Shown here: positions 28,941 to 58,232 of the stretch, piece after piece
Layout: the number at the start of each line of letters is the position of its first letter
Position numbering within the stretch: position 1 is the stretch's first letter
Assembly (NCBI GenBank): GCA_964532875.1
Contig: CAZHIZ010000001.1
Location: forward strand, 12,100 to 76,099
Length of the DNA stretch: 64,000 bases
Direction of reading: 5' to 3'
Source of the DNA: an uncultured Caldithrix sp.
GTDB lineage: Bacteria > Calditrichota > Calditrichia > Calditrichales > Calditrichaceae
Position numbers and translations under genes: made by a program
The notes under the pieces: model-generated
What the model was told of the DNA's origin: nothing
What the model saw: only the letters and a program-made list of their open reading frames with translations
Databases searched by the model: none

Positions 28941-28950
28941 CGCCCTATTT

Positions 28951-28983: not shown

Positions 28984-29020
28984 TGATTTTTTTCACATAT
29001 AGAGAAGGAGAGAGAAAATC

Positions 29021-29473
29021 ATGGCCCAATCATTATCACAAATTTATTTACACATTATTTTTAGTACGGCAAACAGAGCCCCTTTTTTACATGAAACGAT
29101 TTGTAAAGACTTGTACGCCTATATGGCACAAATACTAAATAATAATAATTGTCATGCCTATTTGATTAACGGAACGGAGAATCACGTTCATATTGCCTGT
29201 AATTTATCCAGAACAATAACCGTGAGTCAGATTTTAGAGGAAGTAAAAAGGAGTTCTTCCAAGTGGATTAAAGGGAAAGGTAGGGAGTTTAAATCGTTTA
29301 GTTGGCAAAAAGGATACGGTGCCTTTTCTTTTGGCAGATCTCAATTGGATGACGTTTTAAAATATATTGAACATCAAGAAAGAATACACGAAAAGAAAAA
29401 TTTTAAAGATGAATATTTGGAATTTCTTAACAAATATGAAGTGGAGTATGATGAAAAATATTTGTGGGATTAA
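29021..29473 (+). CDS. IS200/IS605-family Y1 (HUH) transposase-like protein, RAYT type
   Basis: 'LSQIYLHIIFSTANRAPFL', HUH motif 'NHVHIACN', and the catalytic-Tyr block 'WQKGYGAFSF'; 150 aa. SD GAAGGAGAG upstream. Confidence 0.88.
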   Translation: MAQSLSQIYLHIIFSTANRAPFLHETICKDLYAYMAQILNNNNCHAYLINGTENHVHIACNLSRTITVSQILEEVKRSSSKWIKGKGREFKSFSWQKGYGAFSFGRSQLDDVLKYIEHQERIHEKKNFKDEYLEFLNKYEVEYDEKYLWD

Positions 29474-29492
29474 GGTAAATCCAGTTTGGAAT

Positions 29493-32729: not shown

Positions 32730-32764
32730 GACCTGAAAATCTGTTCATGTTAAAAGGACAGCAA

Positions 32765-35638: not shown

Positions 35639-36192
35639 ATAAATACGTCGAAACATTCAATATTCTGTTGATGATAGCAAGCGTGATTGCCGCCTCCGTC
35701 TGGGCCGCGCACATTCCTCCGTTGTGGTTGCCCTTTGGTCTTGCCGTGGCCGTGCTGCTGTTTACCTTAACGGTGCATCGCAAAGGGACGAAAACGCGTC
35801 TGCAAACGGCCCGCTCGGAACACCATCCCTTGCATGTCTTCGGGGAAATGATTAGCGGCAGTTTGCATTTGGTTTCCGCTTTAATGCACAAGAATGAGAT
35901 CACCCCCGAAGATGTCGATCGGCTGGAAGATTTGGTAGAAGCCAACACGACTCGCATGGAACGCATTCATCCTCAGCTTACGGAAACCCTGGGCATGAAG
36001 ACGTTTATCGATCTTATTCTGCCTTTTGCCCGTTCCGAGCGTATGATTAACCGGGCCTTGTCGGCCATGATGGATGGTTACTTCGATGAGGCGAAAAGGG
36101 ATTTGCAAGAGAGTCTTCCTTATTTACAAAAAAGCGAACGGATTTTAAAGGAAATAACCAAATTAAATCTTCAAAGTGAACCAATTAAATAA
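35635..36192 (+). CDS. hypothetical membrane protein (2 TM + helical cytoplasmic domain)
   Basis: The start overlaps the OPT stop (ATGA). Two hydrophobic helices, then a charged helical region. No family recognised. Confidence 0.55.
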   Translation: MNKYVETFNILLMIASVIAASVWAAHIPPLWLPFGLAVAVLLFTLTVHRKGTKTRLQTARSEHHPLHVFGEMISGSLHLVSALMHKNEITPEDVDRLEDLVEANTTRMERIHPQLTETLGMKTFIDLILPFARSERMINRALSAMMDGYFDEAKRDLQESLPYLQKSERILKEITKLNLQSEPIK

Positions 36193-36206
36193 AAACGGGA
36201 TGTGCC

Positions 36207-37040
36207 ATGGCTACACCTAAAAAAGAGAACAAAATCGGGAAAAAGATTAAAGATACGCTTAATGCCTTTGGTATTACCGTCAAAGAGCTGTCCCGCAAAA
36301 CGGGAATCGAAGCGCAAACATTGTACTCCATCATCAACGGGCACCACCAGGCCAGTGTGGAGAAGCTGGAAAAAATTTGTAAAACTCTCCACTTGAGCAT
36401 GGATGCCCTATTGGATATGGAAGTGAATACCTTTCCCATTTTCCCTCAACAGTACGAAGAGAGCTTAAGTTACGCCCATTTTGAGGACGTGTGGTTCGGC
36501 CCTTCGGGAGGCGAACGCATTTCGGTTTCCCGTAATTTCAGTATCATGAACCAATCGGTGGAACTACGTCGCCAATTTCTGAAGAATATTTACGAAATTC
36601 CGGAAGATCGGCTGGAGCAGGCGATCAGTGCTTTTAAAAAACGCCAGGAGGTGATTAAACGAAAAGAGAAACGTCGTCTGGAAATCGTGGTGGAAAGTGA
36701 AGTGGTTGATTTCATCCACCAGCGGGAGCCGTTTGATCGGCTGGATAAGTCGTTGATTGTGGACTGTATCGAAAACATCATCGATCGCCTTAAAAACGAA
36801 CCGCTGAATTTCGAGGTCATCCTCATCCCCCGTCAATTCTTTTTGGTAAATTACGAAATCATTAACCGTGAAGTTATTCTGTTTGACCTTGGGAGTGTCT
36901 TTTTTCGGCAAACCCATCCCAGCTTGCTGGAACATTTTTTGAATGAAGTACAGGATTTTAAATTCAAACGCGCTTCCATCGCTCAACGGGACCATGTACT
37001 GCAATTCTTAGAGGAGCACTTAAATGCAGCCAGAAAATAA
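36207..37040 (+). CDS. XRE-family HTH regulator with ~200-aa C-terminal domain of unknown function
   Basis: 'IGKKIKDTLNAFGITVKELSRKTGIEAQTLYSIINGHHQASVEKLEKICKTLHLSMDALL' is a Cro/C1-type HTH. Confidence 0.8.
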   Translation: MATPKKENKIGKKIKDTLNAFGITVKELSRKTGIEAQTLYSIINGHHQASVEKLEKICKTLHLSMDALLDMEVNTFPIFPQQYEESLSYAHFEDVWFGPSGGERISVSRNFSIMNQSVELRRQFLKNIYEIPEDRLEQAISAFKKRQEVIKRKEKRRLEIVVESEVVDFIHQREPFDRLDKSLIVDCIENIIDRLKNEPLNFEVILIPRQFFLVNYEIINREVILFDLGSVFFRQTHPSLLEHFLNEVQDFKFKRASIAQRDHVLQFLEEHLNAARK

Positions 37041-38172
37041 ACAGCAGGAAATTCTGAACACGATCCGGGACTTGATTCGCTTTCGTACGGTCGATGGCAA
37101 TTTCAAAGAGTTTGAAAAAGCCGTGGACTATGTGCAGAACTTTTTCAAGAACACGCCGCTTTTGGTTCAAAAATATCGGTTCAACGGGTATCCGGCTTTG
37201 GTTATTGCGCGGTCCGGCAAAAAACATCCCCGCTTTTTTCTGCAAGGCCATTTGGATGTGGTGGATGGTAAAGACGAACAGTTTTTAGCGCGCATTCAGG
37301 GCGATGCCCTGTTCGGGCGCGGCGCCGTGGATATGAAAGGCTTCGATGCCGTGGCCATGCATTTGCTACGGGATTTGGCTCGTCAGGCGCCGCAGATTGA
37401 TGCCGGTTTAATGCTTACCTTCGACGAGGAGATCGGCGGGCAAAACGGGGCGCAAAAGCTGGCCGAAATGGCATATTTCCCGGAAATTTTGATTAACGGC
37501 GACGGCGGTTACAATTACGCGGTCATCCATGCCGAAAAGGGCATTCTTAAAATCAAATTAAGCGCCAGCAGTGAATCGGGGCGCCATCCTTATCCCTGGG
37601 ACGGACAAAACGCATTTGATTTGTTAGTCCGTGATTACCAAAAAATAATGCAGCTCTTCGAAAAACAAAAACTGGCTACGGAAGACAACAATTGGTACAC
37701 CACCTACTCATCTTATGATATCAGGGTAGAAAATGAACCGTTCTTTGCCCCTCATCGCGCGGAGATGAAAGTGAATATTTATTTCACGGATGATTTAACG
37801 GCCGATGAAATGTTCGAACGTGTGAAAAGCGTGATTCGTTATTCCACCATCGAAAAATTGAGCGCCAGTGAACGGGTTTATTTGCCACCGAATGACGAAC
37901 ATGTTCTAAAAATGCGTGCCATCATGGAACGCCATTTCAGTCACCCCATTGAAATCCGTGCGGAAAACGGCTCTTCGGACGCCCGTTTCTTTACCAACAA
38001 GGGCTTTCCCATCATCATCGTCAAGATGCCGGGAGAAGATCACCACGGGCCGGACGAACGCCTTTTTATTTCCGGCTTGTTACCCATGTATCATTCGTTA
38101 AAAGAATTTTTGGGGTATTATCATGCAATCCGAGAGGACGTAAAAAATGAACAAGCTGCCACGTTATTTTAA
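37024..38172 (+). CDS. M20-family metallopeptidase (ArgE/DapE/acylase type)
   Basis: 'LQGHLDVVDG', 'GRGAVDMKG', 'FDEEIGGQNG'. Overlaps the upstream gene by 17 nt. Confidence 0.85.
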   Translation: MQPENKQQEILNTIRDLIRFRTVDGNFKEFEKAVDYVQNFFKNTPLLVQKYRFNGYPALVIARSGKKHPRFFLQGHLDVVDGKDEQFLARIQGDALFGRGAVDMKGFDAVAMHLLRDLARQAPQIDAGLMLTFDEEIGGQNGAQKLAEMAYFPEILINGDGGYNYAVIHAEKGILKIKLSASSESGRHPYPWDGQNAFDLLVRDYQKIMQLFEKQKLATEDNNWYTTYSSYDIRVENEPFFAPHRAEMKVNIYFTDDLTADEMFERVKSVIRYSTIEKLSASERVYLPPNDEHVLKMRAIMERHFSHPIEIRAENGSSDARFFTNKGFPIIIVKMPGEDHHGPDERLFISGLLPMYHSLKEFLGYYHAIREDVKNEQAATLF

Positions 38173-40147
38173 AAGGCTGACCCTTTTTGCAGGATTGCTT
38201 ATTTTGCTTTCCTGCCACACGGGCGGCCCGCAAAAAGTTGTGTACAAGGCGCAGGCGCTAAAAGCCCCCGTAGCCACACTCCAATTGGGGCCTTCCGTTT
38301 TTGTCCCGCAAATCATACTGCGGCAGCTTCATGTCTCCGAAGGCACTCCGGTTCGGGTGACCGTGAACCGCAAAAGCGAAGAATTACGCATTTACCGCCT
38401 GATCCGTCCCAGGGCCGGTTTCGCTTTGCACCGAAAATACCGCCAACAATTTGCCGTGGAATTGGGAAAAACCTATTCCCTGATTTTGCAAAAAATTCCG
38501 GCCGGTCAGGCCAGGCTTAAAGCGAAGCCGGTACGTTTTTGGGTGGAAAATTATCACGGAGACACCGCGCTGTGGAAACGTGTGGCCATCGGCGCACCGC
38601 ACGGCGATTGCGATCTGGAAACCGGTGCGGTGGTGCATTACTTGCAGAAAGAATTTCATGTTCCGGCAACAGCCGCTTACGGCGGAAGGCTTTCCTACCA
38701 CGGCATTTGGTACGATGTCAATCGACCCTTAATGAAATTGCCCAAAAAGGGCGGCGGGGTTATTCCCGAACGGGTTTGGAATGCCAAGGCCGAGAAAGTG
38801 TATCGTACCTATCAAGACAGCGTTTGGCGCAATAGCGGCCTGCATTTCGGGCAACGCTTCCGCTTTTTTACCAGTTTTCACGGTCATGATTTGACGGTGA
38901 AGTTGGCCAACGGTAAGGTAATCCAGCGCCCGGTGATCGAAGCGATGGGCATTGGTTTTAGTAAAAAAGATTTACGCAAAATCAAACGCTTTTACAATTC
39001 CCGTAAAAACGATTACTACGACAATCCGCCCATGTTGGTGTTCGGAAATTTGCCGGAAGATCGCGTTTATTATTATCAAAACATTCCGCTCAAATTTTTT
39101 TACAGCGGATTGGGTACGCGGGTGTACGGTTCTTTGCGCAGCGATCTCATTCGTTACGGATTGCATATCGAAACACCCAACAGCATGCGACTCGATCCGA
39201 AAGTGCAGCCGAAAACCGCACGCTTTTTGCACGATCTCTACCAATTTGTTCTGCAGGAAATTATTCAGCCCAAAGAAAACCGGCCTGACCTCTCAAAGTC
39301 CCTGCCCCCTGTTGCGCGGCAAATCCACCCCCGCATGATAACCGTTCCGGGCGGAGAATTTTTGATGGGAGCGCCACAAAGTGTAGGCTGGGCCAGCGAG
39401 CATCCCCAACATGCGGTGCGGGTTTCGCCCTTTAAAATAGATGCCTATGAAGTTACCAATGGGGAATTTGCCCGTTTTTTGAACCGCTGGTTTAAAAAGG
39501 GGCTGTTGGTTGTGGACAGCGGTCTGGTCAAAAACGCCCGGCATCCGGCGGAAATTTGGTTTCGTACCAGGGAAGCCGCCCCCATGAGTGAAATTTCCTT
39601 TAACGGTCGGGAATTTCAAGTGCTTAAAGGACGGGACGTATTTCCCGTGATTTACGTGAGTTGGTACGGGGCCAACGCGTTTGCTCTGGCCCAGGGCAAA
39701 CGTCTGCCCACGGAAGCCGAATGGGAAATGGCCGCTTCCTATGATTTTAAAACAAAGCACAAATATCTTTACGCCTATTCATCCGACAAAATCGACGAAA
39801 AACATTGCAACTTCCAGGACAGTCACGATCCCTTTGAATATGTTTCCGGTGCGGCTACCACACCGGTAAACTATTATTCCGTCGGCTCTCCCGAGGGCGT
39901 GTACGGAATGTCGGGCAATGTCATGGAATGGTGCTCGGATTATTATCAATACGATTATTACAAAAAGAACAAACAAAAAATCTGGGACAACCCGCAGGGG
40001 CCGGCAAAGGGGACCATGCGCACGGTGCGTGGCGGCGCCTGGAATCTGGAGCCGTGGATCGGCCGAACCACCTTTCGTCTGGGAATTAGTCCCAAAGCCA
40101 CGCTGGTCAATGTAGGGTTTCGTTGTGCCCGATCGCTGGCAAATTAA
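38147..40147 (+). CDS. lipoprotein: N-terminal unknown (possibly zinc-amidohydrolase-like) region fused to a C-terminal formylglycine-generating-enzyme (FGE/SUMF1)-type domain
   Basis: Lipobox 'LLILLSCHTG'. C-terminal 'MITVPGGEFLMGA', 'PQHAVRVSPFKIDAYEVTNGEF', 'LPTEAEWEMAAS', 'GNVMEWCSDYY', 'RTVRGGAWN', 'GFRCARS'. Confidence 0.8.
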   Translation: MNKLPRYFKRLTLFAGLLILLSCHTGGPQKVVYKAQALKAPVATLQLGPSVFVPQIILRQLHVSEGTPVRVTVNRKSEELRIYRLIRPRAGFALHRKYRQQFAVELGKTYSLILQKIPAGQARLKAKPVRFWVENYHGDTALWKRVAIGAPHGDCDLETGAVVHYLQKEFHVPATAAYGGRLSYHGIWYDVNRPLMKLPKKGGGVIPERVWNAKAEKVYRTYQDSVWRNSGLHFGQRFRFFTSFHGHDLTVKLANGKVIQRPVIEAMGIGFSKKDLRKIKRFYNSRKNDYYDNPPMLVFGNLPEDRVYYYQNIPLKFFYSGLGTRVYGSLRSDLIRYGLHIETPNSMRLDPKVQPKTARFLHDLYQFVLQEIIQPKENRPDLSKSLPPVARQIHPRMITVPGGEFLMGAPQSVGWASEHPQHAVRVSPFKIDAYEVTNGEFARFLNRWFKKGLLVVDSGLVKNARHPAEIWFRTREAAPMSEISFNGREFQVLKGRDVFPVIYVSWYGANAFALAQGKRLPTEAEWEMAASYDFKTKHKYLYAYSSDKIDEKHCNFQDSHDPFEYVSGAATTPVNYYSVGSPEGVYGMSGNVMEWCSDYYQYDYYKKNKQKIWDNPQGPAKGTMRTVRGGAWNLEPWIGRTTFRLGISPKATLVNVGFRCARSLAN

Positions 40148-40157
40148 AGGAGAGCGC

Positions 40158-42158
40158 ATGTCCGCTTTTTTTAAAACGATTGTCCCATTACTATTTTTGC
40201 TGTACGGTTTTGCTTTGCCCAAAGCGGTAACTCAAAAGCAAGCCTTGCGTGTGGCAAATACGGTTTTGCAAAGAGAAAAAGAATTCGCGGGCCACGGTCC
40301 CTTTGCGGTTGGCGAAATACGTAAAATTGCTTGCTCGGCCCCAACGGATTCTTTGTACCTCGTTTCGCTTAAACCGCGGGGCTTTTTGCTGCTGAATGCC
40401 GACGACCGATTAAGGCCGCTGATCGGCTATTCGCGGCAAAATACTTTTTCCGGCGGGGCAACGGTACGGCTATTATTGGAAAAAATAGTGCGGGTGCAAC
40501 GTCGCGTGGCTCTCTTCGATACCCGCTGGGTGCAAAAAAATCGCCTGAACTGGCGCTCGTTATCAAAAGGCGGTAGCCCGGTTTTGGCCAAAACGAGCGG
40601 GGACAGCGTGTATTATTTTCCCACGCCGGTTTGGGGCCAGGGCATGGTGAACGGCGTGTACGTGTTCAATTATTACACGCCGAATCACTGGTCGGCCGGA
40701 TGTGTGGCCACGGCTCTGGCCGAAGTATTGGCCTTTTTCCGGTGGCCGCCGGTGGGAACCGCTTCTCATTGCTACACGGAAAACGATGCCGGCCAACTGT
40801 GCGCCGATTACCAAAATACCCATTACGATTGGCCTGACATTCTGCCGAAATACATCAATGAGCACACCACAGCGCAGCAGCGCCGCGCAGCGGGATTGTT
40901 GACTTACCATGCGGCTATCAGCGTGAATATGGATTTTTCGGCCAACGGTTCAACGGCCAATGTGTCTAACGTTCCCTATGCCTTGCACCATTATTTTCGC
41001 TTTAGCGGTCATTACAAATCGGCCGGAGAAACCGATTTTTGGACGGAGCTTATCCATAACATGAAAGATGCCCGTCCGGCGATTTTGGCCATTTCCCGTT
41101 CCAGCGACGGATTCGGCCATGCGATTGTTGCCGACGGCTATTCCGAACACAACGGGTTATTCCATTTGAATATGGGCTGGAACGGCAGCGATAACGGTTG
41201 GTACGATATTCGCGGCGATTGGAACGTGAGTGGCTACGACATCGTCAACGGAGCCACCAAGGGCATCGTCCCCAGTCCCATGATTTGTCCCGAGGTAACC
41301 ATGCTTTCTGCCAGGCAGTTTATTTTAAGCTGGCGTGTCAGCCGCTACCAGAAAGCCTGCTACTACCAGGTGCAGCAGGCTCAGGCTGCCGGCGGGCCCT
41401 GGACCACCCTTGCGGAAGCGGTGACCGATACCTTTTTGCAGATCAGCGTACCGCAAATATCGCGCTATTACTATCGGGTACGTGCGCGCCGGGACGATAT
41501 TTGGTGGGATTGGTCGGCCGTGCAGTCGGTTAGTTTGGGCGGCCCGCGCTACCTGACCTTTAATGTGGACATGCGTTACCAGACCCTGACGCAAGGCGAC
41601 AGCGTAGTTTTGCGCGGTAATGTGCCGCCGCTGAAAGGAAGTGTAAACAGTCGGGCTTTGCAGGATGAAGACGGCGATTCGGTTTATTCTCTTACCTTGC
41701 CCTTTGACGTGGCCTATGTGGGACATGAATTGTTGTACCGCTTTGCCATTGCCGGTGCCGCCGGTACGCATCTGGAATCCTTTAACCGGAGCTATGTGAT
41801 CGGAGCTCAGGAATACCAGAATTTGGATACGGTTTTTTTCGATGATTACACGGCATTGGCTAGGCAGGATTTGCTTCCCGAGCATAGCCGATTGATCGGT
41901 AATTTCCCCAATCCCTTCAATCCGGTTACGTTCATTCGCTATCGCATTGCCAAAGAGAAAGGGCGCCCTTCCGTGCATGTCCGGCTGACGATTTACAACG
42001 TTTTGGGACAAACCGTAGCGCGATTGATCGATAAGAATCAATCGGCCGGAGAATATCGCGTTCGTTTCCGGGCCGACGGTTTACCGGCCGGTTTGTATTT
42101 TTGTCGCTTACAGACGGATGATTGCAGCGGAGTGCGTAAGATGATTTTAATCAAATAA
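40158..42158 (+). CDS. C10 (streptopain-like) cysteine peptidase with Spi-type propeptide, Ig/CBM-like domain and T9SS C-terminal sorting domain
   Basis: Catalytic Cys 'WSAGCVATALAEVLAFF' and His 'GHAIVADGY', then 'MGWNGSDNGWYD'. CTD 'FPNPFNPVT...LTIYNVLGQTV...GLYFCRL...RKMILIK'. Start at MSAFFK (AAGGAGAG upstream). Confidence 0.85.
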   Translation: MSAFFKTIVPLLFLLYGFALPKAVTQKQALRVANTVLQREKEFAGHGPFAVGEIRKIACSAPTDSLYLVSLKPRGFLLLNADDRLRPLIGYSRQNTFSGGATVRLLLEKIVRVQRRVALFDTRWVQKNRLNWRSLSKGGSPVLAKTSGDSVYYFPTPVWGQGMVNGVYVFNYYTPNHWSAGCVATALAEVLAFFRWPPVGTASHCYTENDAGQLCADYQNTHYDWPDILPKYINEHTTAQQRRAAGLLTYHAAISVNMDFSANGSTANVSNVPYALHHYFRFSGHYKSAGETDFWTELIHNMKDARPAILAISRSSDGFGHAIVADGYSEHNGLFHLNMGWNGSDNGWYDIRGDWNVSGYDIVNGATKGIVPSPMICPEVTMLSARQFILSWRVSRYQKACYYQVQQAQAAGGPWTTLAEAVTDTFLQISVPQISRYYYRVRARRDDIWWDWSAVQSVSLGGPRYLTFNVDMRYQTLTQGDSVVLRGNVPPLKGSVNSRALQDEDGDSVYSLTLPFDVAYVGHELLYRFAIAGAAGTHLESFNRSYVIGAQEYQNLDTVFFDDYTALARQDLLPEHSRLIGNFPNPFNPVTFIRYRIAKEKGRPSVHVRLTIYNVLGQTVARLIDKNQSAGEYRVRFRADGLPAGLYFCRLQTDDCSGVRKMILIK

Positions 42159-44612: not shown

Positions 44613-44668
44613 TCCTTTAAATTAAACAAAATTTTATTAAAGTGAAATGTTTAAGTAAAGGAGAAAAG

Positions 44669-49688: not shown

Positions 49689-51392
49689 ATGAGGGGTTTA
49701 TTTACTATCCTAACTATCTTGTTTTTTACTTTCTGTCTGACGGCTTCGTTGCAGGCGCAGGATCCGGATTACGTGGCCGACGGGTACAGCAAAGTATTGA
49801 CGATCAACAAGTTCGAGAATGCCACGCATTGGCCGATTGTAGCTGACGAAGTTCATGCCGGATTCGATTTGGACAAAGACGGCAATCAGGAATTTATCGT
49901 TTTGGCCGACAATTCCGATCCCAACGGCCCGACCGGTGCCGGTTGGGAAGATGGACACTCTATTTTCGTCTATGAATGGAATCCCACCAGCAGTCAGTAT
50001 GAACTCATGTGGTCATGGGCCGACACGTCATTAAAGACGGGCGGTGCCAGTTTCCCCACGATGGCCGTAACCGATTTGGATGGTGACGGTAACCAGGAAA
50101 TCACACTGGGTATGCCCAGTGGTTCCGGATGGCCTGCACCCGATGTAAGCCCGACGGTTTTCTATGTCTTCGAATTTGGAGATGAAGGTTTGCCCACCGA
50201 GCCTACTGCCACCTGGACGGCAGAAACTGGGCCCGGTTCCAATACGCGTCCTTCGGCCATGGCAGCTGCCGATATTGACGGTGACGGACAGGAAGAAGTG
50301 GCCGTAGCTTTTCGTAAATTCAGCGATGCCGGTACGAACGACGCTTTAATGATCTTCTCGCTGGATGGGGAGTTCATGGGCGATTTTACCCAGTTCAAGA
50401 TCGAGATGATCGACACGACCGGTGACTGGGGCAGTGTGTATGCTGCTGACATTACGGACTTGGACAATGACGGCAATTTGGAAGCCTATTTTTCCACGGA
50501 TTACCACACCATTTATGAAGCGACCGGCCCCGATTCTTACAAATTGTATTACGAAGAAAAACCCAAATACGGTCCCTGGACGATTCAGGCCACGGCTCAA
50601 TGGGATATTGATGGCGACGGTACCAATGAACTTGTTTTCGGAAAAACAAACGGTTCGTTGTGCATTTTGCACGGAATCAAAGATTTGGCCAACATCGACT
50701 CCACCAACGAAGCATTAATCAAGGAAGTGGAACCCGGTGGTTGCCGCGGGTTAACCGTTGGCGATTATGACGGTGACGGCAAGACCGATATTTTTATGGG
50801 CGGCAATTATGCGGGTAGTGTATGGCGCATCAAATACAAAGGTGGCGATATTACCGATTCCTCCAGCTATTCGTTTGAAAAGGTCTTCCAGGACACTACA
50901 CCCAGCGGCGGTGCACGTGTTTATTCGGTTTCATTTCCCGGTGACTATCTTTCCACCAAAGAAGGCGGCAGCAAGGTTAACGACATGAATAAAAACGGTC
51001 AGCCGGAATTGTTGATTGCCTACGAAGACGGCGATTCTCTGCAAAATTGGATTGTCATGCTCGAAGGTAACGGCGTAACGGGTATTGAATTGAATCCTGG
51101 TGAACAGGTTTTGAATACCTACACCTTGAATCAAAATTATCCCAACCCGTTCAACCCCACGACGGCCATTTCTTTTACCATTCCCAAGGCCCAACATATT
51201 TCTCTGAAGATTTACAACATGCTCGGTCAGGAAGTGAAGACCTTGGTTGATGACGATTTGAATCCCGGAAGCTATTCCAAAGTTTGGGACGGCACCAATA
51301 ATATGGGACAGAATGTGCCCAGCGGGGTTTATGTGTATACCTTGCAAGCCGGTCAGCATAAACTGAGTAAAAAGATGACGCTGATACGCTAA
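49689..51392 (+). CDS. FG-GAP/VCBS-repeat beta-propeller protein with T9SS CTD
   Basis: Repeated Ca-binding-like loops 'DLDKDGNQE', 'DLDGDGNQE', 'DIDGDGQEE', 'DLDNDGNLE', 'DIDGDGTNE', 'DYDGDGKTD'. CTD 'NYPNPFNPTT...LKIYNMLGQEV...GVYVYTL...KKMTLIR'. AGGAGG SD. Confidence 0.85.
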   Translation: MRGLFTILTILFFTFCLTASLQAQDPDYVADGYSKVLTINKFENATHWPIVADEVHAGFDLDKDGNQEFIVLADNSDPNGPTGAGWEDGHSIFVYEWNPTSSQYELMWSWADTSLKTGGASFPTMAVTDLDGDGNQEITLGMPSGSGWPAPDVSPTVFYVFEFGDEGLPTEPTATWTAETGPGSNTRPSAMAAADIDGDGQEEVAVAFRKFSDAGTNDALMIFSLDGEFMGDFTQFKIEMIDTTGDWGSVYAADITDLDNDGNLEAYFSTDYHTIYEATGPDSYKLYYEEKPKYGPWTIQATAQWDIDGDGTNELVFGKTNGSLCILHGIKDLANIDSTNEALIKEVEPGGCRGLTVGDYDGDGKTDIFMGGNYAGSVWRIKYKGGDITDSSSYSFEKVFQDTTPSGGARVYSVSFPGDYLSTKEGGSKVNDMNKNGQPELLIAYEDGDSLQNWIVMLEGNGVTGIELNPGEQVLNTYTLNQNYPNPFNPTTAISFTIPKAQHISLKIYNMLGQEVKTLVDDDLNPGSYSKVWDGTNNMGQNVPSGVYVYTLQAGQHKLSKKMTLIR

Positions 51393-51406
51393 GCGTAACT
51401 CTGGAG

Positions 51407-51437
51407 AAAAAAGGGAGATTTTTTCTCCCTTTTTTTT
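51407..51437 (+). terminator. rho-independent terminator
   Basis: AAAGGGAGA/TCTCCCTTT stem followed by an 8-nt T-run. Confidence 0.8.
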
Positions 51438-51505: not shown

Positions 51506-54352
51506 ATGAATAACAAATTAATGCTCTTCATCTTTATTCTATCTTTTTTATTGAGTAGTGCCTTTGCCGCCACAACGGGTAAAATTGTAGGGCGGGTAAC
51601 GGATGCAGCTACCGGCGAACCTCTGGCGGCAGCGAACATCGTTATTAAAGGCATGCCCCTGGGTGCAGCTACCGATCTGGACGGTTATTATGTGATATTA
51701 AATGTTCCTCCCGGGGTTTACACCTTGCAAGCCATTTATGTGGGCTACTCGGTGAGCGAAGTAAAAAATGTGGAAGTGAAAGTCGGATTAACCACTACCA
51801 TCAATTTTAAATTAAAAGAAGCCAGTTATGAAGGCGAAACCATTGTAACGGTTGCGGAACGCCCTTTAATTCAAAAAGACGCTACGGCTACGGCGGCCGT
51901 AGTTACCGCCCAGGAAATGAAAGCTTCTCCGATCGAGAATTTTACAGATATTGCTCAAATTAAAGCCGGCGTTAACGTGGGCCCGGACGGCGCCTTGCAC
52001 TTTAGAGGCGGGCGCTCCTCGGAAGTGGCTTATATCGTCGATGGTATCCCCGTAACCAATGCCATCGACGGGGGAATGTCCATGGATGTTTCGACCAATG
52101 CCATTGAAGAGCTTTCATTGATTACCGGTTCGTTTAATGCGGAATACGGGCAGGCCATGTCGGGTGTGGTCAACATCGTGACCAAGGAAGGCGGTTCCAA
52201 GTTTAGCGGTAATGTTTCCGTGCATGCCGGTGATATCGTAACACGCCCCCAAAACAGTAAATATTTTTTACCGGAAATAAAAAAGATCGATCCCCTTAAC
52301 ACCGTCGATACGCGTTTCGGCCTTTCCGGCCCGTTATTCAAAGACCGGGTAACATTTAATGTTTCCGGTCGTTATTTGCGAGACAACGGTTACCTGTACG
52401 GACAGCGTATTTATGATACACGCAATATCTTTTTTTCCAATGTTACCGGCGACAGTGCCTATGTTTCGCTCAATTCGCAAAAACGTTTCAACCTGCAAAG
52501 TAAATTGAAATTTCGCCTGACCAATTCCATCGATTTTTATTTTACGACTCTGTATGAAAACAGAAAATACCAAAACTATAATCACCGCCGGAGCAAAGTT
52601 CCGCAAGGGATCCCGTGGAATTTCGACAATTCGTTGCAGTTTATCGGTAAAATCAATCACCAATTCAGTTCCAAGGCTTTCTATTCTTTAGCAGTAGGTT
52701 TTCTGAATAGAAATTACAAATATTATCTTGATAAAGATCCGTTCTCTACCAAATATGTGTGGAGCGGTTACAGTACGGGCCAATATTTTTATCCCGGCGG
52801 AACGGATAATCATCGCGTGTTTGAAGATCAAAAACAATTAACGCTCAAATGGGATTTGACCTCCCAGATATTAAAAAATCATGAAGTGAAAACCGGGCTG
52901 GAATTCAAGTACCTTTCGCTGGCCCGTCATTCCTATTATGTGGATCCGGACCGCCGCGACGAACCGTATGTGGACGCCAATCATAACGGCATGTACGATC
53001 CGGGAGAAGAATTCACCGATATTAATTTCGACGGCAAATGGAATCCGGCCAGAGACGACAACGGCGACGGAATTCCCGGGAATATTATCGAATTACAAGG
53101 GTGGACGAATGACAAATGGCACCGCTATCCCAAGGAATTTGCCTATTATGTACAGGATAAAATCGAATTGAAAGATATGGTCTTGAATGTGGGTTTGCGT
53201 TTCGATTATTTTGAACCGGACGGACACGTTTTGGCCGATCCTACCGATCCGGATATCAATTCGCCCATCAAAAACGAAAACATTTGGAAAGATTACGGGA
53301 CGGACGGCATCCCCAATACGCACGATCCCGACGGTACCGAGGGTAACGGTGTGCAGGATCCGGGAGAACCCATTGTTACTTTGCAGGAAAGGGAAAAGTA
53401 TTGGTACAAAGATGTCAAACCCAGCATGCAGCTAAGTCCGCGTATTTCGTTTGCCTTTCCCATTTCGGCAAACGGTAAGTTGTTCTTTTCCTACGGACAT
53501 TTTTTCCAATTGCCGCCCTATCGCTTTTTGTACACCGATTACAATAATCACGTAAAACCCGGTTTAATTCGTACAGATATGGGAAATCCGGCCCTGAAGC
53601 CTCAAAAGACGATTAGCTACGAGGTGGGTATTGAGCAACAATTAATGCCCGGTGTGGCCGGTTATTTAAAAATCTACCAACGCGATATTCGCAATATCAT
53701 CGGACAAAAGATCATTATTTTGCCCAATACCGATGCCTATGCCCTTTACATAAACCATGATTACGGGCGCGTGCGCGGTATTAATTTTAGTGTGGTCAAA
53801 CGCTTCTCCAGTCATTTTTCGGCAACGATCGATTACACTTATCAAATTGCCGAAGGAAATGAATCCAGTCCCACGGCTACACGAACTAAGTTCCGCTTAA
53901 AAGAAGAAGCCATTAAGAAAATCGTGCCGCTCGATTGGGATCAAACCCATACGCTTCGATTAAACGGCATGTATTCCAAACCGGAAGATTGGATGGTCAG
54001 CATGATCGGGCGCATCGAATCGGGATATCCGTACACACCTATGGGAATCAATGAAATTGTCAAGATTTCGGAAGAAAACAGTGCGCGTAAAATTCCCATT
54101 ATCAAATTCGATTTAACCTTGCGTAAATACTTCAAATTGCAGATGGCCGATACCAAATATCTCTTTTCGGTTTATGCCAAAGTGTACAACTTGTTTGATC
54201 GGTTGAATGAAAAATACGTTTGGGATTCGACAGGACGCGCCACGTACGGTTTAGGCTTGTTCGGCGGTAAATTCGATGAAGATTGGCAGCGCAGACCGCA
54301 TTGGTTCTACAAACCGCGTGAAATCTTTTTAGGCGTTGAATTTAGTTTTTGA
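51506..54352 (+). CDS. TonB-dependent-receptor-like outer-membrane barrel with N-terminal CarboxypepD_reg domain (cassette 2)
   Basis: 'GKIVGRVTDAATGEPLAAANIVIKGMPLGAATDLDGYYVILNVPPGVYTLQAIYVGY'. Plug-like 'LSLITGSFNAEYGQAMSGVVNIVTKEG'. Terminal '...FLGVEFSF' with C-terminal Phe. AGGAGG SD. Confidence 0.87.
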   Translation: MNNKLMLFIFILSFLLSSAFAATTGKIVGRVTDAATGEPLAAANIVIKGMPLGAATDLDGYYVILNVPPGVYTLQAIYVGYSVSEVKNVEVKVGLTTTINFKLKEASYEGETIVTVAERPLIQKDATATAAVVTAQEMKASPIENFTDIAQIKAGVNVGPDGALHFRGGRSSEVAYIVDGIPVTNAIDGGMSMDVSTNAIEELSLITGSFNAEYGQAMSGVVNIVTKEGGSKFSGNVSVHAGDIVTRPQNSKYFLPEIKKIDPLNTVDTRFGLSGPLFKDRVTFNVSGRYLRDNGYLYGQRIYDTRNIFFSNVTGDSAYVSLNSQKRFNLQSKLKFRLTNSIDFYFTTLYENRKYQNYNHRRSKVPQGIPWNFDNSLQFIGKINHQFSSKAFYSLAVGFLNRNYKYYLDKDPFSTKYVWSGYSTGQYFYPGGTDNHRVFEDQKQLTLKWDLTSQILKNHEVKTGLEFKYLSLARHSYYVDPDRRDEPYVDANHNGMYDPGEEFTDINFDGKWNPARDDNGDGIPGNIIELQGWTNDKWHRYPKEFAYYVQDKIELKDMVLNVGLRFDYFEPDGHVLADPTDPDINSPIKNENIWKDYGTDGIPNTHDPDGTEGNGVQDPGEPIVTLQEREKYWYKDVKPSMQLSPRISFAFPISANGKLFFSYGHFFQLPPYRFLYTDYNNHVKPGLIRTDMGNPALKPQKTISYEVGIEQQLMPGVAGYLKIYQRDIRNIIGQKIIILPNTDAYALYINHDYGRVRGINFSVVKRFSSHFSATIDYTYQIAEGNESSPTATRTKFRLKEEAIKKIVPLDWDQTHTLRLNGMYSKPEDWMVSMIGRIESGYPYTPMGINEIVKISEENSARKIPIIKFDLTLRKYFKLQMADTKYLFSVYAKVYNLFDRLNEKYVWDSTGRATYGLGLFGGKFDEDWQRRPHWFYKPREIFLGVEFSF

Positions 54353-54373
54353 CAGCTTTGGTGGAGGAAAATC

Positions 54374-57160
54374 ATGAATAAAAATAAAATCGTTGCGTTC
54401 ATTCTGATACTCTTTGCATTTTTAAGCCTTTCCCCGACGGCTTATGCCCAAAATGCGCCGCATGTTCGGAAGCTGATGAAATATTGGACGCAGCAACAAT
54501 TTGAAAATTGGGGTAAGTGGAATCATAAAGTCCAATTGCTCAAATCGGCCGGTGCCGCCGATCGGCGACAGGGCATCATGGACGGAAATAAAATAACCAC
54601 TGTGTTTTACAATTACGGCTCCATCGGCCGTCCCAATACCGAGCCGTCGATCGAATGGCCCAGCGGCAGCAATCATGGTTACGCTTATGAATTCGGGCCG
54701 CTGGTTGGTGCCGAAGTGGTGGACATTTACGGCGACACCGTACACATCATTTCCGATGCTCTAATCGACGGCGGCGATCGCGCGCCCAGTGGCAAAGTTT
54801 GGGGATGGCAGCCGCTGCCGCAGTATTTGAATCCGACGGCTTCCACACCGGCCATGAGTAACAATCCGGCCAGTTGGCCGCAAACCATGTCGCCTTCGAA
54901 TCCGTTTTACAATCCCAATGCCACCGGACCCGACGACCGCTTTTTATGGCCTGGCGTACACAAGCAAGGCGAAGTTTCGGCTGATCTGGAAGCCTATTGG
55001 GTCATGGACGATCGGGATAATGATGAGTTCGCTTATTATCCCTTTATTAACGATTCGTCACGGCGCGGTTTAGGTGTTCAACTGACCTGTCGTCTAATGC
55101 AATTTGCGGCCACTCCGGCGGAAGATATCATTTTTTACATCATTAAAATCGAAAATGTCAGCGACAAACCCTTGAAAAAAGTGGTCGTCGGGATGTACGG
55201 CGATCCGCATATCGGCGGCCCGGGTGATTTTGCCGATGATATGGCCGGATTCGATCGGGAAAAGAATATGGTCTTTTCCTGGGACAAGGAAGGTTCCAGT
55301 AACGATTTTGGCATTCCCTGGGACGAGTTGGGTTGGTTGGGATTTAAATTCTTGGAAAGTCCCAAAGACAGCCTGGGTAATCAGTTGGGCTTAACCAGCA
55401 TGACCGCTCCGGTGTACGCTTCGGCCGAAGCGACACCCTCCAATGATGACATTATGTGGAAGCAGTTGACCCCGGGGCAGTTCGACGAAAACAATATCAT
55501 TCAGGAATCGGACAATGTTTTCCTGTTCGGTTCGGGATACTTTTCGCTGGCACCGGGTGAATCGCAACAATTTTCCGTTGCCATTATCCTGGGCAAGGGG
55601 AAGGACGATTTATTTGCCAATGCCGAAATTGCTCAGGAAATTTACGATTTGAACTACAAGTTCACCAAGGCTCCGGATCCGCCGCACGTTACGGCCGTAC
55701 CGGGAGACGGGGAAGTAACGTTGTATTGGGATACGTCCGCCGAAAATGCCTATGACGATTTCTTTAAAGCGTATGACTTCGAAGGATACAAAATTTACAA
55801 GAGCACGGACAAAGGACAAACCTGGGGCCCGGTGATTACCAATTCCTACGGTCAGGAAGTGGGTTTTAAACCTCTGGCCCAATACGATGTGATCGATGAT
55901 AAAGAAGGATTGTTCCCCTACGACAAGGACGGGTACAAATTCGATCTTGGTAAAAATACCGGTCTGGTACACACCTTTACCGATCACAATGTTATTAACG
56001 GAGTCACCTATTACTATGCGGTTACGGCGTATGATTCGGGATATGCTTCGCGCAATGTCACCCCGTCCGAATCCGGCAAGTACAAAGGGCGCAATATGGT
56101 GGCCGTCATGCCCACCCCGCGGGCGGCCGGATACAGCGATGCCACGACGCAAGTGGAACATGCCGCCGGATTTTCCACGGCTCAGGTGCAGGCTAAGGTG
56201 ATTGATCCGCTCAAAGTGACCGGAAAAGATTACATTGTGAGCATCGACGACACCTCTTCTTCAAATAAAATGGTTAACATCACCGATGCCGACGGAAAAG
56301 AAATTGTTACAAATTTCTCCCATTTAGACGGGTTCCCGGTTATTTTCGACGGCATCATGGCTTCGTTTAACGACGTGACTTTTGTGACACCGATTGATTC
56401 GTTAACCGGATGGAGCGAAACTACTTCGCAAACCACCAAGGATTCCGTGCAATTGGAAGTTAGCCTTTTTACCGGCGGTGTGCGTCTGGAACGCGATTTG
56501 GAAATTCGCTTTTTCGACGACATCGTGGATACGACGTACAACCATAAACCGGTTCCCTTCGAGATATGGAATACCACGGATAACGAACAATTAAATTCGT
56601 TTTACGTGGATAAAAATCAAAAAGGTGTGCTGGATAAAGGCGATAAGATTGTGGCCCTGACGGAAGTAAACGGACGTTTAAAAGGTGCCTGGCAGGCGGA
56701 AGTAAAAAGCGAAAACGCCTGGCAACCGAAAAAAGGCGATGTGTATGTCATTAAGATCGCCAAGCCGTTCCGCAATACGGATCAATATGTCATTCACACC
56801 ACACCGGCGGGAATTGACGAGAACAAGGCCAAAAATTCCCTGGATAAAATCGCCGTTATTCCCAATCCGTATGTGGTTACTTCCAGTTTTGAAACGCAAC
56901 CGTTGTCGGTCTTCAGTGCCGGACGCGGTGAACGGCGCATCTATTTTATCAATCTGCCTCAGAAATGCACCATACGAATTTACACAACTGCCGGGGAGCT
57001 CATTCGTACCTTACATCATGATAAACCGATCTTAAACGGTACGGAACCCTGGGACTTATTGACGGATGAAGGCCTGGAAATCTCCTACGGGATTTATGTT
57101 TACCATGTGGATGCCGGGCCCATCGGTGAGAAGACTGGTAAATTCGCAATAATTAAATAA
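54374..57160 (+). CDS. large secreted FN3-containing protein with divergent T9SS-type C-terminal domain (cassette 2, middle gene)
   Basis: Signal peptide 'IVAFILILFAFLSLSPTAYAQ'; FN3-like 'GEVTLYWDTSAENAYDDFFKAYDFEGYKIYKSTDKGQTW'. Tail 'CTIRIYTTAGELIRTL...YGIYVYHV....GKFAIIK'. GGAGGAAA SD 4 nt before the ATG. Confidence 0.82.
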   Translation: MNKNKIVAFILILFAFLSLSPTAYAQNAPHVRKLMKYWTQQQFENWGKWNHKVQLLKSAGAADRRQGIMDGNKITTVFYNYGSIGRPNTEPSIEWPSGSNHGYAYEFGPLVGAEVVDIYGDTVHIISDALIDGGDRAPSGKVWGWQPLPQYLNPTASTPAMSNNPASWPQTMSPSNPFYNPNATGPDDRFLWPGVHKQGEVSADLEAYWVMDDRDNDEFAYYPFINDSSRRGLGVQLTCRLMQFAATPAEDIIFYIIKIENVSDKPLKKVVVGMYGDPHIGGPGDFADDMAGFDREKNMVFSWDKEGSSNDFGIPWDELGWLGFKFLESPKDSLGNQLGLTSMTAPVYASAEATPSNDDIMWKQLTPGQFDENNIIQESDNVFLFGSGYFSLAPGESQQFSVAIILGKGKDDLFANAEIAQEIYDLNYKFTKAPDPPHVTAVPGDGEVTLYWDTSAENAYDDFFKAYDFEGYKIYKSTDKGQTWGPVITNSYGQEVGFKPLAQYDVIDDKEGLFPYDKDGYKFDLGKNTGLVHTFTDHNVINGVTYYYAVTAYDSGYASRNVTPSESGKYKGRNMVAVMPTPRAAGYSDATTQVEHAAGFSTAQVQAKVIDPLKVTGKDYIVSIDDTSSSNKMVNITDADGKEIVTNFSHLDGFPVIFDGIMASFNDVTFVTPIDSLTGWSETTSQTTKDSVQLEVSLFTGGVRLERDLEIRFFDDIVDTTYNHKPVPFEIWNTTDNEQLNSFYVDKNQKGVLDKGDKIVALTEVNGRLKGAWQAEVKSENAWQPKKGDVYVIKIAKPFRNTDQYVIHTTPAGIDENKAKNSLDKIAVIPNPYVVTSSFETQPLSVFSAGRGERRIYFINLPQKCTIRIYTTAGELIRTLHHDKPILNGTEPWDLLTDEGLEISYGIYVYHVDAGPIGEKTGKFAIIK

Positions 57161-57173
57161 ACGGAGCATGATC

Positions 57174-58187
57174 ATGAGAACAATACATTTGATTTTTATT
57201 CTTCTGTTGAGCATTGCACTCGGGTCTGCCGGTGAAATTACCAAAAAAGGTACCAGCGCCGCCCAATTTTTGAAGATCGGTGTCGGTGCTCGGGCAACGG
57301 CCATGGGCGAAAGTTTCGTGGCCGAAGCCAACGATGCCTCGGCGGTCTATTGGAATCCGGCCGGTCTGGCTCATTTGACGCGTAATGAATTGTTGCTGGT
57401 GCGTACCAATTGGATCGCCGGTATGACCTACGATTTCGCCACGGTTACCATACCGATGCAGTCAATCGGAACGTTCGGGCTATTCTACCAGGCCTTGAAT
57501 ATGGGCGAGATGAAAGTCCGCACGGAATATCAGCCGGACGGTACGGGCGAATTGTTTGATGCCAGTAGCTTTTCCCTTGGACTGAGTTATGCCCGAACCA
57601 TGACCGACCGATTCGCTTTCGGTCTTACGGCCAAATACATTCGGGAGCAAATTTGGCACGAGTCCGCTGCTACCATGGCTATTGATTTGGGCATTACCTA
57701 CCGAACTTCCATTAAAAATTTGCGTCTGGGAATGGCTATTTTAAACTACGGCGGAAAAATGCAAATGAACGGCAAAGATCTGCTCACCTTTGTGGATGTG
57801 GATCCTAATTTAAAGGGAAATAACGAGTACATCGTCTCCCGTTTGAATACCGAAAAATTCGATATTCCTCTGAACTTTCGTATCGGCCTGGCTTATGATC
57901 CGATTAAAACCGATTTTTCGCGGGTAACGATTACCATGGACGGCGTTTCACCTAATGATTTTAACGAATATTTGAACGTGGGCATGGAATATGCCTTCCG
58001 CAACATGGTCTTTTTACGCACCGGTTTCAAAGGGATTGGAATTCACAATGCCGAAGGCGGTTTTTCGGCTGGTGCCGGTATTAAATACAAAATGACCGGC
58101 CAATTGGGTTTGGTCATCGATTACGCCTATGTGGATTTCGGGCGTTTGAATAATGTTCAACGTTTTTCCCTGCGTATCTTGTTCTAA
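57174..58187 (+). CDS. PorV/PorQ-family outer-membrane beta-barrel (cassette 2)
   Basis: 'GEITKKGTSAAQFLKIGVGARATAMGESFVAEANDASAVYWNPAGLAHL'; ends '..FSLRILF'. The ATG at 57174 has better SD spacing than the ORF-track 57168. Confidence 0.78.
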   Translation: MRTIHLIFILLLSIALGSAGEITKKGTSAAQFLKIGVGARATAMGESFVAEANDASAVYWNPAGLAHLTRNELLLVRTNWIAGMTYDFATVTIPMQSIGTFGLFYQALNMGEMKVRTEYQPDGTGELFDASSFSLGLSYARTMTDRFAFGLTAKYIREQIWHESAATMAIDLGITYRTSIKNLRLGMAILNYGGKMQMNGKDLLTFVDVDPNLKGNNEYIVSRLNTEKFDIPLNFRIGLAYDPIKTDFSRVTITMDGVSPNDFNEYLNVGMEYAFRNMVFLRTGFKGIGIHNAEGGFSAGAGIKYKMTGQLGLVIDYAYVDFGRLNNVQRFSLRILF

Positions 58188-58199: not shown

Positions 58200-58232
58200 G
58201 GGGCTGTCTGATCGGGCAGCCCCTTCTCTTTT
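58200..58232 (+). terminator. rho-independent terminator after cassette 2
   Basis: GGGGCTG/CAGCCCC stem followed by TTCTCTTTT, 13 nt after the stop. Confidence 0.65.

Follow-up and report, generated by a model that had tools for sequence, protein, structure and literature searches.

The window analysed here, a stretch of 64,000 nucleotides from an uncultured Caldithrix sp. (assembly GCA_964532875.1, contig CAZHIZ010000001.1, positions 12,100 to 76,099), contains two copies of a three-gene cassette, copy 1 (26022-33835) and copy 2 (51506-58187). Each copy encodes, in this order, a TonB-dependent transporter (gene 1), a secreted protein designated MID here as the middle protein of the cassette (gene 2), and an outer-membrane barrel of the PorV/PorQ family (gene 3). 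MID ends in a C-terminal domain (CTD) that appears homologous to type IX secretion system (T9SS) sorting domains, and the three genes are inherited together across several phyla. On balance, the trio is probably a nutrient-uptake module that works without SusD. The features of both copies and of their surroundings are collected in Table 1.

Table 1. Positions, in window coordinates, of the two cassettes and of other features of the window (ORF, open reading frame)
Feature	Position	Strand	Description
Copy 2 gene 1	51506..54352	+	TonB-dependent transporter, 948 aa
Copy 2 gene 2 (MID)	54374..57160	+	Secreted all-beta protein, 928 aa
Copy 2 gene 3	57168..58187	+	PorV/PorQ-family outer-membrane barrel, 339 aa; 337 aa from ATG 57174
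Intrinsic terminator	51403..51437	+	10-bp stem and T-run; ends the upstream FG-GAP/T9SS-tail gene, 5' boundary of the predicted copy-2 unit
Intrinsic terminator	58200..58232	+	10-bp stem with 7 GC pairs, then TTCTCTTTTG; closes the predicted copy-2 operon
Copy 1 gene 1	26022..28940	+	TonB-dependent transporter, 972 aa
Copy 1 gene 2 (MID paralogue)	29493..32729	+	1078 aa from ATG 29493
Copy 1 gene 3	32723..33835	+	PorV/PorQ-family barrel; listed start TTG 32723, likely ATG 32747 or 32765
IS200-like (RAYT-like) insertion	28930..29564	+	Y1 transposase gene 29021-29473, between copy-1 genes 1 and 2
Copy-1 downstream block	33893..42158	+	OPT oligopeptide transporter, small unknown protein, HTH_3, M20 peptidase, FGE-sulfatase-domain protein, C10 cysteine peptidase with T9SS tail
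FG-GAP/VCBS repeat protein with T9SS tail	49689..51392	+	Pfam FG-GAP_3 and Por_Secre_tail; separate transcription unit upstream of copy 2
Laminin_G_3 tandem pair	19651-20739 and 20751-21839	-	Lipoprotein-like ORFs, 362 aa each
Polysaccharide-biosynthesis island	about 14-20 kb		Low GC (0.36)
Cell-division cluster (end)	2-4187		Mur ligase, FtsQ, FtsA, FtsZ
tRNA-Thr(CGT)	6314-6387		
NorB-like nitric oxide reductase	61722-63938		Quinol type, N-terminal cytochrome c-like domain

Copy 2 is compactly arranged. A Shine-Dalgarno sequence, GGAGG, lies 8 nt ahead of the ATG of gene 1, the 21-nt spacer between genes 1 and 2 includes GGAGGAAA, and genes 2 and 3 are separated by 7 nt if translation of gene 3 starts at ATG 57168 or by 13 nt if it starts at ATG 57174. 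The second start is the likelier one because GGAG (57163-57166) is found 7 nt upstream of it. The terminator behind gene 3 ranks first in the terminator scan, which found no + strand terminators of comparable strength within the cassette. A preliminary description of this DNA had reported a 21-nt gap with a Shine-Dalgarno sequence between the first two genes, a gap of 13 nt or less between the last two and a terminator on either side (now placed at 51403-51437 and 58200-58232), and had taken copy 2 for one transcription unit. Coordinates and sequence bear out the gaps and the terminators, and the tight spacing between flanking terminators supports a single putative transcription unit. A scan for sigma-70 promoters returned 17 candidates against 20 expected in shuffled sequence, that is, no enrichment; by eye only, a Bacteroidota-type TTTG...AAAATTTG pair at about 51452-51482 may be considered a promoter candidate. 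An Rfam search of the whole window for a riboswitch or other RNA element upstream of the receptor gene matched only the tRNA.

The transporter of copy 2 consists of a signal peptide, a CarboxypepD_reg-like N-terminal domain (PF13715/PF13620, 5e-18), a TonB-box-like ETIVTVA, a plug (PF07715, 2.9e-11) and a beta-barrel (PF00593, 1.5e-23). Copy 1 likewise possesses the plug (1.2e-13) and the barrel (3.2e-27), so that both proteins carry the domain pair of TonB-dependent transporters; the plug matches that of Cir in the PDB. Neither protein belongs to the SusC/RagA family, as TIGR04056 scores 84.9 bits for copy 2 and 102.9 bits for copy 1 against a cut-off of 368, and the match is confined to model positions 2-219 (copy-2 residues 26-243). 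The TonB box of copy 1, QAIVVTA at residue 110, fits the strict motif. The copy-2 receptor terminates in ...LGVEFSF, with the terminal aromatic residue that the preliminary description had read from its VEFSF ending, and the copy-1 receptor in the non-aromatic ...EVIFGGR. Among the receptors of the 60 cassettes compared here, 17 have no terminal aromatic residue.

Copy-2 MID has a signal peptide of the SPI type, cleaved between AYA and Q, and no lipobox; a lipobox was sought in 60 MIDs and found in none. Searches of Pfam and NCBIfam with MID matched no family. An AlphaFold2 (AF2) model of copy-2 MID built from 53 homologues has a mean predicted local distance difference test (pLDDT) score of 86.6 and is nearly all beta. 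The predicted layout comprises a beta-supersandwich (residues ~60-430), an FN3 domain (~435-585), variable beta-sandwich domains (~590-815) and the CTD (825-928), which is ~105 aa long, has a low-confidence loop between its strands 1 and 2 and ends in FAIIK. The model of copy-1 MID (pLDDT 85) gives the same picture in its fold matches. In Foldseek the N-terminal domain matches the accessory supersandwich of glycoside hydrolase (GH) enzymes of families GH94, GH161, GH116 and GH65 (E 1e-9 to 1e-5), and the remainder matches FN3 arrays and PorZ; adhesin repeats and an S-layer protein are also among the fold matches.

Conservation is distributed unevenly along MID. Mean identity across the family is 41% in the N-terminal domain, 48% in FN3 and 53% in the CTD, and is lowest, 26%, in region 590-815; it is the N-terminal domain that co-varies most strongly with the transporter. 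Nine residues of the supersandwich (R64, N80, W95, E106, W192, D213, D277, D289 and D304, copy-2 numbering 64-304) are invariant in the family alignments A1 and A2, and a GDPHIGG-like motif is among the invariant positions. These residues could form a metal-binding site, a ligand-binding site or an active site. Conserved ends around a variable region 590-815 fit a protein with putative docking surfaces and a variable part that may bind ligand.

MID might be a surface enzyme, rather than a passive binding protein, and act on polymer where it enters the transporter, which would be a sub-case of the same uptake system. The likeness of its N-terminal domain to the supersandwich of GH94, GH65, GH116 and GH161 speaks for this, as do the invariant E106, D213, D277, D289, D304, W95 and W192 and the fact that this domain is well conserved and shows the strongest co-variation with the transporter. 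We nevertheless regard an enzymatic MID as unlikely: neither an (alpha/alpha)6 domain nor any other recognisable catalytic domain was seen in the AF2 model or by Foldseek, the supersandwich is merely accessory in the GH enzymes concerned, the Pfam, NCBIfam and PDB sequence matches indicate no enzyme, and the same N-terminal domain occurs beside peptide-type and glycan-type loci alike. A GH94-type phosphorylase was considered separately and ruled out, the shared fold being the accessory supersandwich only; PF06165 and PF17167 are absent and the model is almost free of helices.

The CTD is the part of MID with recognisable relatives. When the MID-family profile was compared with all PDB sequences, the sole matches were the CTDs of PorU (6za2, E 0.037) and PorZ (5m11, E 0.59), and copy-1 MID also has weak NCBIfam matches to the C-termini of PorU and PorZ. 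Its CTD gives Pfam matches below the 27-bit thresholds, to CHU_C (17.7 bits) and Por_Secre_tail (12.9 bits), and a weak one to FlgD_ig. A hidden Markov model (HMM) of the MID CTD recognised every one of the 89 MID ORFs present in the fetched loci, with scores of 120-180 bits. It also matched 65 ordinary T9SS-tail neighbours at their C-termini, with 20-35 bits (E down to 6e-10); one of these is the FG-GAP protein of the window, which bears the Pfam Por_Secre_tail domain. In some members of the family PF18962 is annotated in precomputed form, and 56 of 60 MIDs end in [ILV][IV]K. Because of the cross-matches of the CTD model, the matches to PorU and PorZ and the members with PF18962, the MID CTD is assigned by sequence to the homologues of type A T9SS sorting domains, within which it is a distinct and highly conserved subclass. 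It is not of type B, which is defined by a PF13585/TIGR04131 CTD together with a PorP/SprF barrel: copy 2 has no CHU_C match and its barrel is of the PorV/PorQ kind. Several T9SS cargo proteins of the ordinary kind are encoded in the window, from which it follows that the organism has a T9SS.

The product of gene 3 belongs to the PorV family in the broad sense. NF033709 (PorV_fam, cut-off 90) scores 225 bits for copy 2 and 177 bits for copy 1 and is covered almost entirely, over model positions 1-324 and 1-326 of 326, respectively. The copy-2 barrel matches Pfam PorV at 2.4e-11, and its sole match in the PDB is PorV of Flavobacterium johnsoniae (6h3i_F, 3.3e-12). It falls below the cut-offs of the equivalogs PorV (NF033710, 82 of 250 bits), PorQ (NF033711, 102 of 220) and PorV2 (NF052325, 90 of 325), and copy 1 scores lower still.

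PorV itself belongs to the FadL fold class, and the gene 3 protein has weak matches to FadL/Toluene_X and OMP_b-brl. The barrel might thus be an independent FadL-type channel for small or hydrophobic solutes, with a MID that is co-regulated only and whose CTD is cleaved, the protein then being anchored to lipopolysaccharide in the manner of ordinary T9SS cargo; that no co-evolution specific to the CTD and the PorV-like protein could be detected would also suit such a channel. This explanation is considered very improbable, since the full-length PorV/PorQ match reaches 225 bits against 28 bits, below cut-off, for FadL, and strict adjacency and congruent trees are observed across phyla. Moreover, the MID CTD is an unusually conserved subclass (53% identity; 120-180 bits as against 35 bits or less for ordinary tails), which points to a dedicated partner.

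The MID family is large and widely distributed. Its nearest homologues occur in Calditrichota, where Calab_3298 of Caldithrix abyssi shares 63% identity, and further relatives in Fidelibacterota/Marinimicrobia, WOR-3, KSB1, Stahlbacteria, Zixibacteria and Bacteroidota sensu lato, all annotated as 'hypothetical'. At 90% identity the family has over 2,300 clusters, and an exhaustive profile search of 1.84 billion representatives at 50% identity retrieved 2,375 MID proteins at E<=1e-30. When a single genome of each GTDB species was scanned, more than 590 loci were confirmed, which is a lower bound.

Synteny was examined in 84 loci (labelled L001 to L084), 80 of them from the GTDB-species scan and four, L081-L084, added to it; their ORFs were called and classified by BLASTP. 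The loci span Calditrichota, Ignavibacteria, Kryptoniota, Marinimicrobia, Rhodothermales, Stahlbacteria and KSB1. The trio is conserved through the whole superphylum around Bacteroidota (FCB), where it recurs next to genes for the degradation of sugars and peptides. In the 80 scan loci, wherever the contig suffices, the three genes follow one another on a single strand as receptor-MID-PorV-like, and they do likewise in L081-L084; the order receptor-PorV-like-MID is encountered in three loci (L046, L057 and L080), of which L057 and L080 come from metagenome-assembled genomes (MAGs) of Neomarinimicrobiota and Melioribacteraceae. A second cassette stands in tandem on the same contig in L002, L035, L039, L055, L058, L075 and L084, and several MAGs supply more than one cassette locus. 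The module is therefore multi-copy in many genomes, like the SusC/D pairs of Bacteroidia.

Co-inheritance of the three components was analysed in 60 complete trios. The distance matrices of the three proteins correlate with r = 0.76-0.88, and the neighbour-joining trees of the components have 35-39 of 57 splits in common, compared with 0.15 on average and 3 at most after shuffling of the labels. This is the phylogeny that the preliminary description had proposed as a check on co-inheritance; the trees are highly congruent and the incongruence that would have spoken against it was not seen.

The two copies in the window are far apart in sequence. Protein identity between them is 29% for the receptor, 31% for MID and 36% for the PorV-like barrel; the two MIDs can be aligned by BLASTP over their C-terminal ~550 aa only, and blastn finds one 26-nt match between the cassettes. 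A comparison of profiles of the two MID subfamilies shows that they are homologous over their full length (probability 100%, E 9e-166, 846 columns). Copy-1 MID is 150 aa longer (1078 against 928 aa) and its surplus consists of insertions in the N-terminal domain. It forms an orthogroup of its own, with ~60 clusters from Calditrichota and Marinimicrobia. Among the 60 cassettes, all three copy-2 proteins are closest to L001, L002, L083 (C. abyssi) and L084, and all three copy-1 proteins to L081 and L082. The window copies are thus assigned, from these relationships, to different orthogroups of ancient paralogues, and the three genes appear to have been duplicated and inherited as a unit, whichever evolutionary rate applies to copy 1. 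In an initial set of 55 cassettes, made up of the two window copies and 53 cassettes of other genomes, copy 2 was ~41% identical to the cassettes of other phyla, and copy 1 ranked 52-54 of 54 in closeness to it. Since copy 2 is nearer to the cassettes of other phyla than to copy 1, the split would date back to the divergence of these phyla or to an earlier time, unless copy 1 is unusually fast-evolving.

Copy 1 differs from copy 2 also by an old insertion between its first two genes. The transposase encoded there matches PF01797 at 3.7e-24 over all 121 of the 121 model positions and is of the Y1 type of IS200/IS605. Inverted repeats of 55 nt (28930-28984 and 29510-29564), 78% complementary, bracket the transposase gene, which has a GC content of 0.32, compared with 0.45-0.50 in the cassette genes. 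The repeat on the left reaches into the final codons of the receptor gene, and the one on the right provides the coding sequence for the n-region of copy-1 MID's signal peptide. The insertion is present in L081, whose MID is 86% identical, and absent in L082 (70% identical), where 3 nt separate the stop of the receptor gene from the start of the MID gene. With its right repeat now coding, and conserved in L081, it resembles a domesticated element of the RAYT/REP type. Relative to L081, dN/dS is 0.065 for the copy-1 receptor, 0.047 for its MID and 0.067 for the neighbouring OPT gene, with dS near saturation.

It might be supposed that the duplication was recent or accidental, or that copy 1 is the decaying remnant of a cassette disrupted by a transposon, given the IS200-like gene between its genes 1 and 2 and the receptor without a terminal aromatic residue. 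This supposition is refuted by the low protein identity and the single 26-nt DNA match, by the separate orthogroups to which the two copies belong in other genomes, and by the insertion being common to the relative with the 86%-identical MID while dN/dS of copy 1 is 0.05-0.07. The receptor of the insertion-free L082 ends in ...FYLGGD; because this orthologue and 17 of the 60 receptors are non-aromatic as well, the tail of copy 1 was not caused by the insertion, and it is a trait of the family rather than damage. Pseudogenisation of copy 1 was ruled out by the dN/dS of 0.05-0.07, the intact ORFs and the family-wide occurrence of non-aromatic tails, and recent duplication or gene conversion by the solitary 26-nt match. 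Copy 1 is a paralogue that has been maintained and presumably functions. A duplication elsewhere in the window that looks truly recent, the Laminin_G_3 pair, offers a contrast, as its two proteins are 100% identical. The repeat period is 1100 nt; the pair either arose very recently by tandem duplication or is an artefact of the assembly, and it borders the low-GC polysaccharide-biosynthesis island.

These results bear on what the preliminary description had said of the two copies. The pairwise alignments that it had suggested confirm low identity, and the difference of ~150 aa between the middle proteins is correct. Its statement that the copies share little sequence outside motif blocks is borne out by the low identity and the one DNA match, and needs qualification in that the MIDs are homologous end to end. 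An old duplication with both copies maintained is backed by the separate orthologues, the congruent trees and the dN/dS of copy 1, and a diversified specificity is consistent with the different conserved neighbours of each copy. Copy 2 is indeed compact and uninterrupted; to single it out as the intact version was an overstatement, as all three ORFs of copy 1 are intact and the copy is not decayed.

The neighbours of the two copies are distinct. The block downstream of copy 1 has an identical gene order in the window, L081 and L082 and, judged from its gene content, the layout of a putative protein- or peptide-utilisation locus; C. abyssi has been described as a peptide fermenter (PMC5317091). 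Traced further, to 33893-47491, this block contains an unknown protein of 185 aa, an FGE-sulfatase-domain protein of 666 aa, a C10 peptidase that carries a propeptide-inhibitor domain, and a further two large proteins with T9SS tails, of which one is BNR-like and the other SusE-like; from OPT through the first large T9SS-tail gene the order is common to L081 and L082, as far as these loci extend. Copy 2 is preceded by the FG-GAP gene, which is found upstream of copy-2-type cassettes also in C. abyssi (L083) and in L084; in the latter, two FG-GAP genes flank two cassettes. The copy-2-type cassette of C. abyssi is followed by an M20 peptidase gene and an Asp/Glu racemase-like gene. In other phyla, the recurrent neighbours (clustered and classified by Pfam) are LacI regulators, mostly upstream, GH13 amylases, GH3, GH94, SSF symporters and ABC sugar permeases, together with CBM4_9 proteins that have a T9SS-type FlgD_ig tail, other T9SS-tail proteins and a SurA-like peptidyl-prolyl isomerase. 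Because of these recurrent catabolic, regulatory and importer genes, the cassette may be viewed as the outer-membrane part of loci of the polysaccharide- or peptide-utilisation type in lineages other than Bacteroidia. The remaining genes of the window listed in Table 1, namely those for cell division, the tRNA and the NorB-like reductase, are ordinary housekeeping or respiratory genes.

A different function can be conceived for the same set of proteins. Oar carries a PF13620 domain. The cassette receptor likewise has this domain at its N-terminus, and Oar, a TonB-dependent transporter, is described as needed for protein secretion (PMC6434023). T9SS cargo genes are known to cluster with cognate PorV-like barrels (PMC10202324), and the fold of MID resembles FN3 arrays, adhesin repeats and an S-layer protein. 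The trio could on these grounds be a device for surface assembly or secretion, in which MID is an adhesin or S-layer-like protein, the barrel its private T9SS shuttle or anchor and the TonB protein an outward transporter like Oar or a structural partner. Such a device is improbable in view of the LacI regulators, glycoside hydrolases and inner-membrane importers of sugars or peptides that the cassette loci hold. The many divergent paralogues per genome and the hypervariable centre of MID suit ligand specificity better, and MID needs no second exporter because it already bears a T9SS signal.

The preferred reading, to which we give somewhat better than even credence, is that the trio is a SusD-independent nutrient-uptake module in which MID is tethered through its CTD to a dedicated PorV-like barrel beside the transporter. 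Domain content, homology of the proteins, synteny, co-inheritance, the homology of the CTD and the functions of the neighbours are direct observations. In the mechanism proposed from them, MID would be exported by Sec and then cross the outer membrane via the T9SS. Its CTD would remain uncleaved and dock on the cognate PorV-like barrel, as the CTD of PorU does on PorV and that of PorZ on PorQ, so that MID would be held at the cell surface next to the transporter. The supersandwich and FN3 domains might then touch the transporter, and the hypervariable centre might bind an oligosaccharide or peptide and pass it on for TonB-energised import. MID would in this way fill the role that SusD and the SusE-type lipoproteins have in Bacteroidia.

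Several points weigh against this reading. Retention of the CTD, formation of a complex, the uptake role and the ligands are all inferred, as is the physical link within the trio. The matches of the MID profile to PorU and PorZ have weak E-values (0.037 and 0.59), and the threshold of 27 bits for Por_Secre_tail (PF18962) is not reached, copy-2 CTD having no match and copy-1 CTD 12.9 bits. ETIVTVA of copy 2 is consensus-like and misses the strict TonB-box pattern, which is found in 24 of the 60 cassette receptors. The partial Mantel correlation between the CTD and the PorV-like protein, with the transporter controlled for, is r = 0.13, which does not demonstrate CTD-specific co-evolution. Part of the congruence of the trees reflects shared species phylogeny, although paralogues of one genome separate cleanly in the trees despite this component. 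No diagnostic catabolic neighbour of copy 2 itself lies within the window, and the invariant acidic residues could mean that the supersandwich of MID is catalytic rather than purely binding.

A broader reading is put forward tentatively, as rather less probable than the uptake role itself. The FCB superphylum (Fibrobacteres-Chlorobi-Bacteroidetes) may have a second, SusD-independent architecture of TonB-dependent capture, possibly ancestral, in which the transporter forms a stable complex with a T9SS-exported receptor protein, held at the cell surface, whose uncleaved CTD sits on a dedicated PorV paralogue. PorV-type barrels would in that case be general modular surface anchors, beyond the secretion machine.

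Ignavibacteria, Rhodothermales, Calditrichota, Marinimicrobia, Kryptoniota and their relatives are major degraders of polymers in sediments, hot springs and the ocean, and their outer-membrane uptake is usually described as merely a 'TonB-dependent receptor plus hypothetical proteins'. Two such hypothetical proteins and a receptor are found here to be a strictly co-inherited module, the central protein of which has no family model. The copies in the window are a clear example of old paralogy of a whole unit, in which each copy has conserved gene partners of its own. Should the anchoring model be true, it would join T9SS biology to TonB-dependent uptake, give PorV paralogues a new role and supply a marker for utilisation loci outside Bacteroidia, and it would be testable in the cultivable Caldithrix abyssi, Rhodothermus marinus and Melioribacter roseus.

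A search of the open-access literature found no description of the conserved trio, of the MID family or of the anchoring of a transporter partner by a PorV paralogue, and within that literature the trio appears undescribed so far. The xylan locus Rmar_1067-1073 of Rhodothermus marinus comes near to it. There, a LacI regulator and two Por-tailed proteins, a carbohydrate-binding module (CBM)/GH enzyme and Xyn10A, are followed by Rmar_1070, a TonB-dependent receptor, Rmar_1071, a hypothetical protein with a Por CTD, and Rmar_1072, another hypothetical protein, the latter two being left unexplained in that paper (PMC6987092). This gene order corresponds to that of the cassette with its usual neighbours; Rmar_1071 and Rmar_1072 are candidate counterparts of MID and the PorV-like barrel, and no protein with an Rmar name was among the top 120 homologues of the MID of a Rhodothermus MAG.

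Pairs of a CTD protein and a barrel are known from the T9SS itself. PorU and PorZ keep their CTDs and remain bound to PorV and PorQ, respectively; type B cargo genes cluster with those of cognate PorP/SprF barrels, the presumed anchors of the cargo, and cognate PorV-like barrels have been suggested to shield CTDs from cleavage (PMC10202324). The cassette resembles PorU-PorV and PorZ-PorQ of Porphyromonas gingivalis in pairing a CTD protein with a barrel of the PorV/PorQ family, and among PDB sequences the MID family matches nothing but the CTDs of PorU and PorZ. It differs from them in that MID has neither the peptidase domains of PorU nor the beta-propellers of PorZ, that its barrel scores below the cut-offs of the equivalogs PorV, PorQ and PorV2, and that the pair is linked to a TonB-dependent transporter and catabolic genes; because it occurs in many copies per genome, the pair is not a core part of the T9SS. 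Type B cargo, such as SprB with SprF in Flavobacterium johnsoniae, is similar in that the cargo gene adjoins the gene of its own PorV-like barrel and the CTD is thought to anchor the cargo uncleaved, whereas the CTD of MID is type-A-like, matching PF18962-type tails, and its barrel is PorV/PorQ rather than PorP/SprF. Oar of Myxococcus xanthus, which is required for the secretion of PopC, is also a large TonB-dependent barrel, to which the cassette receptor with its N-terminal PF13620 domain may be likened; the context of the cassette gives no sign of outward transport, and MID has its own T9SS signal.

The closest analogy in logic is with SusC/SusD. As in those systems, the gene of a transporter with a CarboxypepD_reg-like domain lies directly 5' of that of a partner that is surface-exposed (predicted here), and as in SusC/SusD utilisomes the loci contain a regulator, glycoside hydrolases and inner-membrane importers, with many divergent paralogues per genome. 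The differences concern each component: the transporter matches SusC/RagA only in its first ~220 residues, MID is not a SusD/RagB protein, being without Pfam match, all-beta instead of TPR-like and devoid of a lipobox, and its anchoring is proposed to be through a T9SS CTD and the PorV-like barrel of the third gene instead of a lipid. Each part of the cassette is known in kind, be it the TonB-dependent transporter, the protein with a T9SS CTD or the barrel of the PorV family, and their logic resembles that of SusC/SusD; what appears new, judged by the open-access literature, is the trio with its strict conservation, the MID family, which is uncharacterised, and the implied anchoring by a PorV paralogue.

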